The position numbers and the translations under genes were made by a program. Shown piece after piece: positions 4,780 to 5,398 of a stretch of DNA of 5,860 bases. The first letter of the stretch is position 1; each line of letters begins with the position of its first letter. The DNA is from a virus (Duplodnaviria; Heunggongvirae; Uroviricota; Caudoviricetes), in the IMG/VR virus record IMGVR_UViG_2695420651_000011, positions 1 to 5,860 of that record; one strand, written 5' to 3'. The notes beneath the pieces are model-generated. The model had not been told where the DNA came from. It was given only the letters and a program-made list of their open reading frames with translations, and made no database searches.

Positions 4780-5013
4780 ATGTTAAAATCAACTCTTATT
4801 GCTAAATGCCTTTATCAAAATCGCATGGTAAGCAGCATTTCAATAGGCGAGTCTGCAGTTAAAAGTATTTTCGAAGAGTACTTTCCCGGGCATGATTTTA
4901 ATAAATGGAATACCAAATTACCGCCAGCAGTTTCAACGCGTATTCTGAAAGCAACCGAAAGAGCAAGTACAATTCGCGTTAACTATTTCATTAAAGATTT
5001 GTGGGATCTTTGA
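4780..5013 (+). CDS. Hypothetical small protein (77 aa), plus strand, within the AT-rich cassette
   Basis: Only ORF covering 4780..4990 on either strand. Strong SD AGGAGG (4770..4775) 4 nt before ATG. No family recognised (MLKSTLIAKCLYQNRMVSSISIGESAVKSIFEEYFPGHDFNKWNTKLPPAVSTRILKATERASTIRVNYFIKDLWDL). The 3' end overlaps the convergent 135-aa gene by 23 bp. Could still be spurious. Confidence 0.45.
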   Translation: MLKSTLIAKCLYQNRMVSSISIGESAVKSIFEEYFPGHDFNKWNTKLPPAVSTRILKATERASTIRVNYFIKDLWDL

Positions 5014-5398
5014 TATCCACAGAGCCTAAAGTATGTGCATATGGATGTGCTATTATGCGCCCTCGCAGATTTGCATCATTTTCTAAATTCACTGAACGAA
5101 ACAGGGCATCAACAAGGCTCTGTACAATGCAAAGGCAATCGAAGACTGTCGCCGTTTCTGTTTTGATTGATGAAAGAACATGGCCATTCACGCAAACAGA
5201 AATTACCCGTTTATTAACATCGCTTTCCTGCTTTTGATTATCAGAACCATATAGCCCAGAAAAAGCATTGCGCACATTACGAACCATATTATCGATGGTT
5301 TCTTTTTCTGCGGTACTAAGGTCAAGAGTAGCCAGTTGTGAACGAACTATATTCGATGCCATTTCCTGTAATGGCGTTGGTAAATCTTTAAATTCCAT
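4991..5398 (-). CDS. Hypothetical protein (135 aa), no recognisable family, no predicted TM segment
   Basis: ORF with SD GAGG 6 nt upstream of ATG (caacGAGGctaataATG). Follows the 72-aa gene on the same strand with a 22-bp gap. AT-rich composition. Sequence MEFKDLPTPLQEMASNIVRSQLATLDLSTAEKETIDNM... not recognised. Confidence 0.65.
   Translation of the reverse strand: MEFKDLPTPLQEMASNIVRSQLATLDLSTAEKETIDNMVRNVRNAFSGLYGSDNQKQESDVNKRVISVCVNGHVLSSIKTETATVFDCLCIVQSLVDALFRSVNLENDANLRGRIIAHPYAHTLGSVDIKDPTNL

Follow-up and report, generated by a model that had tools for sequence, protein, structure and literature searches.

Here we describe a cassette of two small genes, transcribed towards each other and overlapping at their 3′ ends, in a 5,860-nucleotide stretch of DNA (the window; positions 1 to 5,860 of the IMG/VR virus record IMGVR_UViG_2695420651_000011) that represents the early-left arm of a Qin/Sp9-like lambdoid prophage of Escherichia coli. 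The plus-strand gene, at 4780..5013, starts with ATG, encodes a protein of 77 amino acids (aa), hereafter p77, and is antisense to the early-left operon. The minus-strand gene, at 4991..5398 and likewise starting with ATG, encodes a 135-aa protein and lies within the early-left ydfC-dicF-dicB operon, between ydfC and dicF. The two open reading frames (ORFs) share 23 bp of coding sequence on opposite strands (4991..5013), in a register where the wobble position of either frame is the second codon position of the other; lengths, strands and overlap are exactly as given in a preliminary description of the locus, which had also reported the AGGAGG Shine-Dalgarno sequence of p77, found at 4770-4775, 4 nt before the ATG. 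The 135-aa gene has a GAGG Shine-Dalgarno sequence (5406-5409, minus strand) 7 nt upstream of its ATG and 22 nt past the ydfC stop, an operon-like spacing. The two proteins are 100% identical to ECs_1762 (p77) and ECs_1763 (135 aa) of prophage Sp9 in the O157:H7 strain Sakai, and RefSeq lists both as hypothetical proteins (135-aa coding sequence, WP_000394552); in the literature ECs1763 otherwise appears only as a PCR typing marker. The pair is carried by 637 of 5426 complete E. coli genomes (~12%), O157:H7 included, and also occurs in prophages of many other Enterobacterales and of some more distant bacteria. Among deposited phage genomes it is present only in the O157 "PPompW" prophages and Escherichia phage Evi, LR597642, always annotated as hypothetical proteins.

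The anatomy of the locus firmly identifies the cassette as an accessory, horizontally exchanged module of two genes whose halves are transcribed towards each other. Boundaries from blastn, and junctions with cassette-less Qin-type prophages (including L003), delimit the whole accessory insert to ~4767-5400. It has no match in K-12-type loci that retain ydfC, dicF and dicB, and is thus not a core component of the dicBF operon but an insert into the ydfABC-dicF-dicB operon. The suggestion that this is separately acquired DNA is thereby upheld by its clean boundaries and its absence from K-12-type Qin prophages, as well as by its replacement with other cassettes elsewhere. The AT-richness cited in its favor was correctly counted (40.0% GC for 4801-4980 and 41.7% for 5101-5220), and the cassette, at 38.8% GC, is the lowest of any 619-nt stretch in the window; the comparator of about 67% (66.7% for 2041-2100) is however unrepresentative, since the exonuclease gene from which it was taken averages 49.6% and the whole window 46.5%. 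The cassette sits in the loop of an inverted repeat, ACCAAC (4761-4766) and GTTGGT (5411-5416), which in the absence of the cassette makes a hairpin just downstream of ydfC and is possibly a recombination or RNA-processing site. A second hairpin, gtgggatctttgatatccac (5001-5020), lies in the gene overlap and had been proposed as a means of mutual antisense control. It can form, but at −4.7 kcal/mol (z = −2.1) on the plus strand and −2.7 kcal/mol (z = −1.6) on the minus strand, without a T-run on either, it is too weak to carry that argument, and it exists largely because both proteins end in Ile-Lys-Asp read from opposite strands; we therefore discarded it as a terminator or control element. 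Mutual interference follows from the convergent layout itself, without the hairpin.

That the two genes belong together is borne out by their homologues, which travel together as the preliminary description had anticipated. A convergent minus-strand ORF runs over the p77 3′ end in 83 of 84 p77-anchored loci, with an overlap of 23 bp in 81 and 26 bp in 2, and p77 is present in 73 of 79 loci anchored on the partner. All remote relatives sampled that had enough flanking sequence, namely L167, L168 and L171-L174, keep the layout as well, with overlaps of 20, 24, 33, 29 and 23 bp in L167, L168, L171, L173 and L174; L170, a 588-bp contig ending at the p77 stop, is uninformative on pairing. The association holds from ~99% to below 45% identity, across several bacterial orders, many phage backbones and varied N-terminal fusions of the partner, and the variety of overlaps (20-33 bp) and fusions implies repeated remodelling of the junction in which the genes nonetheless stayed together. 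Across 28 distinct E. coli cassettes, both genes are intact in 25, p77 is broken in two and the 135-aa gene in one. A broken p77 opposite an intact partner is seen in L140, L086/L146/L148 and L006, and in L160 a stand-alone partner faces a convergent homologue of the zinc-binding gene ECs_2282 in place of p77. Loss of p77 with retention of the partner, which would have made the latter a single-gene moron, is thus confined to a minority (the five loci of cassette variant B, described below, and the broken p77 of 2/28 E. coli cassettes). Conversely, the only clear p77 relative outside the pair is a solitary gene with 43% identity at 3989-4228 of L007, a chromosomal metagenome-assembled genome of Psychrosphaera, without partner or evident prophage context and flanked by genes for a PAS-domain protein and a large glycoside-hydrolase-like protein.

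The preliminary description had taken the entire 135-aa protein as a member of the pair. Judging from tblastn, comparison of ORFs and alignment, the protein is a fusion, in which an N-terminal module is joined to the domain that is conserved with p77 (the partner domain, residues ~63-135, 4994..5212, minus strand). Of the 135-aa protein, only the last ~73 residues thus form a conserved unit with p77. The N-terminal module (residues 1 to ~55, 5234..5398, minus strand), a helical hairpin, is shared with proteins that have unrelated C-termini at the same site; PHROG matches to it are limited to residues 1-63, and other matches of partial coverage were seen too. The AlphaFold2 model of the 135-aa protein (predicted local distance difference test, pLDDT, 74) likewise predicts an N-terminal helical hairpin, a disordered linker at 50-60 and a C-terminal domain, the latter with a predicted β-hairpin (65-79) and helices (85-101 and 105-111). 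The partner domain carries the motif VNG..T..AVAaDY..F...L..LE.EAN..GKT..H. Its 82 homologues are mostly stand-alone proteins of 75-80 aa, and in phages from outside E. coli the partner ORF is usually 75-95 aa long and aligns with residues ~63-135. N-terminal fusions differ by lineage, most lineages having none: the domain is preceded in L078 (4212-4685) by a ClpX-type C4 zinc finger (PF06689, 34 bits, E = 2.5e-8, above the cutoff), in L085 (4212-4793) by a YdfC-like coiled coil, and in L173 by ~160 residues of unknown sequence. Since ydfC lies directly upstream of the cassette in the window, the YdfC-like fusion suggests that YdfC may belong functionally with the pair. The 135-aa protein corresponds over its full length to PHROG 1363 (E = 4.8e-47), which has neither a functional annotation nor a record of the pairing. 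Neither the protein nor a profile of the partner domain has a match in Pfam, NCBIfam, PADLOC or the sequences of the Protein Data Bank (PDB), and the AlphaFold2 model gave no informative structural match in a fold search.

For p77, homologues of ~77 aa with 55-72% identity are found in Klebsiella, Dickeya, Xenorhabdus, Salmonella, Morganella, Yersinia and Serratia, and an exhaustive profile search recovered 163 representative clusters, nearly all of stand-alone proteins of 74-80 aa; domain fusions were consequently dropped as a clue to function. Between genera the proportion of nonsynonymous differences (pN) is ~0.3 against a saturated synonymous proportion (pS) of 0.7-0.86, a sign of purifying selection, and the length is kept, which argues that p77 is more than a chance ORF. 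The same is indicated for both genes of the cassette, whose products have kept their length and motifs under purifying selection while synonymous sites are saturated. The AlphaFold2 model of p77 is predicted with high confidence (pLDDT 96.8) as a compact five-helix protein. It belongs to PHROG 10348 (E = 1.1e-47, 77/77 positions), again without functional annotation or record of pairing, and is without match in Pfam, NCBIfam, PADLOC, PDB sequences or fold searches. The earlier impression that neither product resembles a known family thus held throughout these searches, and no homology to a housekeeping phage function was found for either protein. Charge, considered as an indicator of a toxin or antitoxin role or of RNA binding, proved inconsistent across the p77 family and was set aside.

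An experimental lead on p77 is provided by a survey of the RNA-associated proteome of enterohaemorrhagic E. coli (EHEC) Sakai, carried out by TRAPP mass spectrometry without prophage induction (Zammit et al. 2025; PMC7618764). Native ECs1762 was significantly enriched in these uninduced cells, and the tagged protein gave more radiolabelled crosslinked RNA in a polynucleotide kinase (PNK) assay than the sfGFP control, in both LB and MEM-HEPES, which indicates that p77 is made in the lysogen and contacts RNA in vivo; overexpression from pBAD also yielded protein (PMC7618764). The authors noted that ECs1762 has no detectable RNA-binding domain and took it no further (PMC7618764). Our searches by sequence and by fold agree, in that p77 has no recognisable RNA-binding domain of the Hfq, ProQ/FinO, CsrA, KH, S1 or cold-shock types.

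The pair always lies beside the cI/cro switch. Directly upstream of the partner in L073 and L084, between it and the cI-type repressor gene, stand a TTGACT/TAATAT pL-like promoter and an OR-like operator, which points to the partner as the first gene of an early-left operon under repressor control; L168 and L173 differ in that a cro-like gene precedes the partner, which is divergent from the cI-like gene. Co-transcription of the partner with cI, as for rexAB, was considered and rejected, because in the former loci the operator and pL-like sequence intervene and in the latter the partner is on the strand opposite cI. A single reading fits both arrangements, with the partner as a lytic gene expressed very early and p77 invariably antisense to its operon, and by their position the two halves would be expressed in opposite phases of the life cycle.

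Since native p77 is seen in uninduced cells (PMC7618764), it needs a promoter. A candidate sigma-70 promoter, of low confidence, is at 4663..4691 on the plus strand (TTTTCA, 17 nt, TAAACT; 8/12 positions, below the threshold of the scan). A conserved element of interleaved inverted repeats, GCCTG..ACCAC..CAGGC..GTGGT, with the topology of an RNA pseudoknot and followed by an invariant TGnTAnnnT, was also noticed. It lies ~30-90 nt upstream of p77 genes in L004, L073-L075, L078, L082, L084 and L085, and in all fetched loci only 27-34 nt upstream of genes of the p77 and ECs_2282 families, always antisense to the early operon. The window has a copy at 5667-5705 (plus strand), upstream of an ECs_2282-type gene, and a degenerate one in the p77 5′ leader (4698-4755, plus strand), which includes the hairpin-capable repeats GCCGGA...TCCGGC (4698-4721) and CTCCAC...GTGGAG (4729-4747) with a compensatory GCCGG/CCGGC. 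Counting pairs, 81.5% of cells are paired compared with 25-48% when the partners are slid, and there are four double-sided changes; the element was nevertheless not accepted as a proven RNA pseudoknot, given the small sample and the Xenorhabdus and Photorhabdus copies, which have no 5′ arms. The TGnTAnnnT resembles an extended −10 and is consistent with p77 having its own promoter, so that the element is a candidate promoter, operator or RNA structure. Just past the 5′ end of the 135-aa gene there is a terminator-like hairpin with a T-run (5444..5471, plus strand; one found where 1.6 are expected by chance), and L073 has an analogous site past the partner; this weakly suggests that the p77 transcript could run antisense to the partner gene over its entire length. 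The idea of a link to DicF or some other known RNA was abandoned, as an Rfam search of 10 divergent loci matched neither DicF nor any other RNA; the Sp9 small RNA (sRNA) HnrS is elsewhere, in the late genes.

Within E. coli this site proved to be a hot spot of polymorphism, occupied by eight cassette variants that all have the N-terminal module in common. Variant A is that of the window. In variant B a minus-strand protein of 201 aa, which keeps the partner domain and adds a new C-terminal extension, faces an unrelated antisense gene of 66 aa with a 23-bp overlap, and in variant C proteins of 106-113 aa face an antisense gene of 91 aa (overlap 23 or 32 bp). Variant D (124-128 aa) has no antisense gene and no overlap. 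The remaining ones combine minus-strand and antisense products of 128 and 73 aa (variant E, overlap 11 bp), 128 and 148 aa (variant F, no overlap, the antisense protein having two transmembrane segments), 212 and 73 aa (variant G, overlap 0 bp), and 126 and 104 aa (variant H, overlap 77 bp). The alternative antisense genes start after an identical constant leader ('...PQEGE|M') that includes the Shine-Dalgarno sequence used by p77. Relative to variant C the swapped segment is 4781-5285, that is, the p77 coding sequence and minus-strand codons 39-135, so that N-terminal residues 1-37 remain constant (boundary at 5286 against L002), and relative to variant B it is 4781-5015 only. The C-terminal domain and the antisense gene thus appear to be exchanged together by recombination in constant flanks, as expected of cognate pairs. 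The variant F antisense protein (L192 2954-3400) weakly matches an SLATT-type effector of DRT defence systems (PADLOC, E = 0.002), which hints that antisense genes at the hot spot can be lysogen-expressed defence effectors; the other variant proteins have no family match in Pfam, NCBIfam, PADLOC or PDB sequence profiles. ORF calls at the site are prone to inflation, as the plus-strand frame of the dicF precursor runs in phase into the antisense gene of other variants (L002 2920-3357). In strain JP538, for instance, RefSeq has 145 aa where the real gene is probably of 91 aa, starting past the common Shine-Dalgarno sequence.

The reading we favor, to which we assign a probability of about 0.4, is that p77 and its partner are a mutually exclusive pair, composed of a lysogen RNA-binding protein and a cognate early lytic protein, and that they constitute an accessory guard or exclusion module. 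In the lysogen, where the early promoter is off, p77 would be transcribed from its own promoter and act at the RNA level, either silencing leaky early transcripts or interfering with incoming phages in the manner of HK022 Nun. Upon derepression, head-on early transcription across the p77 gene would cause transcriptional interference and produce a full-length antisense RNA, shutting p77 off, and the partner, among the first early proteins made, would bind or otherwise counteract the p77 already present. The two states would then be mutually exclusive and the phage able to disarm its guard. What is fused to the N-terminus of the partner varies (helical hairpin, ClpX-type zinc finger, YdfC-like coiled coil); these pieces are plausibly oligomerisation modules, and their repeated acquisition, together with the co-exchange of C-terminal domain and antisense gene, fits a cognate protein pair.

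Several points weigh against this proposal. The interaction between p77 and its partner is itself a proposal, and so is the production of the 135-aa protein upon induction, deduced solely from where its gene lies. Neither protein has homology to a defence system or exclusion family in PADLOC. The TRAPP and PNK signals can arise when a basic protein binds RNA non-specifically; the isoelectric point is 9.5 for the E. coli p77 compared with 4.7-5.2 for remote members, and with these being acidic, RNA binding is possibly not family-wide. No promoter upstream of p77 passes the scan in the window, and the degenerate element copy in its leader apparently does not have the TATCTT −10 hexamer. At the E. 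coli site, furthermore, the five variant B loci keep the partner domain with another antisense gene in place of p77, and the C-terminal domain of variant F is also found without any antisense gene, so that strict cognate coupling is not universal there.

Other explanations have to be weighed against the same observations. The locus could be a toxin/immunity-like pair comparable to a pore-forming colicin operon, in which the partner is an early host-takeover or growth-inhibiting effector and p77 a constitutive antidote. A gene of the uninduced state, convergent to the 3′ end of an inducible one, corresponds to the layout of colicin immunity genes, and the constant N-terminal module, swappable C-terminal domain and co-swapped opposite-strand gene resemble polymorphic toxin/immunity loci; p77 on its own is tolerated, as seen from the native protein in lysogens and from the product of pBAD overexpression, and the neighboring early genes dicB and dicF are known growth inhibitors. 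The partner domain, on the other hand, has no catalytic signature (its single conserved His is lost in L171), membrane segment, or toxin-family or fold match, p77 is broken opposite an intact partner in the loci named above, albeit in what may be silent cryptic prophages, and RNA binding is not expected of a simple antidote. Such a pair is the main rival of our reading, but we regard it as unlikely, and hold the same of the roles it would give p77, whether in protecting the lysogen from leaky expression or in neutralising the effector of related incoming phages. An anti-defence module whose early partner inhibits a host defence, like Ral and Gam from the lambda pL operon, with p77 as a modulator, would suit a hot spot so diverse and a place among the accessory genes of the early-left operon, but it offers no role for a lysogen-expressed gene on the opposite strand, and the searches run gave no homology to known anti-defence proteins, which makes it very improbable.

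It is also conceivable that the RNA matters rather than the proteins. The p77 transcript, complementary to the early operon in the way that lambda OOP is to cII, would then tune the 135-aa gene, dicF and dicB, whether by RNase III or by transcriptional interference. In favor of this, conservation extends to the 3′ overlap, any early transcript must carry the full antisense of p77, terminator-like sites occur past the 5′ end of the partner in the window and in L073, and DicF itself is known to arise by processing of a long operon transcript. However, purifying selection on both proteins is clear, a confident fold is predicted for p77, which has also been detected as a protein, phages without DicF or another Rfam RNA nearby carry the module too, and the overlap hairpin is weak. 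Given how strongly both genes are constrained at the protein level, a purely RNA-level role is unlikely, and we consider one in which the proteins are secondary improbable, whichever of the two routes it took. Equally improbable would be two independent morons kept together only because the overlap hinders their separation. Neither has an assigned function, and variant B and L160 have a partner without p77, as L007 has a p77 relative without partner; against this, pairing persists over the whole range of identity and bacterial orders given above, along with the opposite-phase layout beside the switch, and a junction so often remodelled without parting the genes makes independent hitch-hiking unlikely.

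The guard or exclusion module that we propose shares features with several known systems. Nun of HK022 is a lysogen-made RNA-binding protein acting on the transcripts of other phages, and Esc is the phage's own antidote to SieB. Like p77, sieB (esc) of P22 and lambda and nun of HK022 are prophage-expressed accessory genes by the immunity region, in the early-left arm. There is no sequence or fold similarity to them, nor any Pfam or PHROG match to SieB, and whereas Esc is an internal in-frame product of sieB, p77 and its partner are encoded by convergent genes; Nun is a disordered arginine-rich peptide and p77 a predicted compact five-helix domain. Expression from a repressed prophage, as for SieB, applies to p77 (ECs1762 in uninduced EHEC, TRAPP; PMC7618764).

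The closest likeness in layout is with colicins and antisense-controlled genes. Pore-forming colicin operons combine an inducible effector gene with a small constitutive gene on the opposite strand at its 3′ end, and the C-terminal domain is swapped along with the cognate gene. Such a layout and the joint exchange recur here, but the immunity proteins of colicins reside in the membrane, unlike the soluble, RNA-associated p77, the partner of ~73 aa has no pore or nuclease features, and no SOS box was identified. Convergent, 3′-overlapping units controlled by antisense RNA and RNase III are found in lambda cII/OOP and in bsrG/SR4 and txpA/RatA of Bacillus; like these, the pair is convergent, 3′-overlapping (23 bp, or 20-33 bp in relatives) and prophage-borne, and OOP is beside the lysis-lysogeny switch too. 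There, however, a non-coding RNA supplies the antisense, and the toxin of a type I toxin-antitoxin (TA) system is a short hydrophobic peptide, while here both strands encode conserved, folded, soluble proteins. A type II TA system is not indicated, the genes being convergent and 3′-overlapping and not arranged in a co-directional autoregulated operon, and neither has homology to a known toxin or antitoxin family or fold; PADLOC matched neither p77, the 135-aa protein nor YdfC. The logic proposed for p77 and its partner is rather that of CsrA-FliW and TRAP-anti-TRAP, where a small RNA-binding regulator is turned off by a dedicated small protein made under another condition; there is no homology to these, and their genes are neither convergent nor overlapping.

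As to the surroundings of the cassette, the minus strand carries, in order, an integrase fragment, an excisionase-like ORF, an 823-aa exonuclease, DUF1482 (ydfD-like), dicB (4033-4221), the DicF sRNA, the p77/135-aa cassette and ydfC (5421-5639). YdfC, whose gene precedes the 135-aa gene within the early operon, is the 72-aa protein that had been taken for the product of the first gene of the operon, which it is not. DicF, at 4396-4445 (minus strand) in the same operon and downstream of the 135-aa gene, matches Rfam RF00039 with 43.5 bits (E = 3.1e-7), below the gathering score of 48, and is thus a variant of the stem-loop; a sub-threshold match to STnc100 (Rfam, E = 3e-4) spans the dicB leader (4202-4407, minus strand). 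A 124-aa plus-strand ORF at 4412-4786 has no family match, lies within the GC-rich precursor region of dicF and was treated as spurious. The right end of the window cuts through the putative zinc-binding gene of the ECs_2282 type (66-68 aa, MNTIKFSCPECGG...; 5733-5860, plus strand), which is antisense to the early operon. Annotations conflict here, since for the same DNA some RefSeq records call a 99-aa minus-strand hypothetical protein (ECs_5719 / WP_001240336); the overlapping minus-strand ORF starts at ~5712. As a whole the window is only a mosaic relative of Sp9, with bases 1272-5860 ~95% identical and an int/xis module (1-1271) unrelated to that of Sakai Sp9. Bases 1-119 match the end of an IS1203/IS629-type element (95% to the insertion sequence (IS) copy in L001), and the integrase ORF (117-938) has its stop at 117, beside this end; the integrase is thus apparently IS-truncated, which appears to make excision of the prophage impossible.

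We found no description in the literature of the pair, its conservation or the hot spot; what comes closest is the one sentence that identifies ECs1762 as a new RNA-binding protein (PMC7618764). The kind of layout, in which the 3′ end of an inducible gene is met by a gene on the other strand that is expressed under repression, is known; the components and their conserved coding overlap are new. At its broadest, the proposal would make the pair a new and widespread phage module that provides a second, post-transcriptional layer of immunity, a bistable toggle between an RNA-binding protein of novel fold, confined to the lysogen, and its dedicated early antagonist, hard-wired by the convergent overlap and filtering induction noise, excluding rivals, or both, with the E. 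coli hot spot as a polymorphic library of cognate pairs. In this full form we find it doubtful. The regions beside the cI/cro switch hold several of the best-known exclusion and regulatory genes (rex, sieB, nun, N), and a pair undescribed as a unit lies among them. For p77, an orphan RNA-binding protein with no known RNA-binding domain or structural analogue, the pairing with an early lytic gene gives a testable context, and the existence of a hot spot for such antisense cassettes in prophages of the Shiga-toxin era is relevant to the stability of prophages and to how phages compete.

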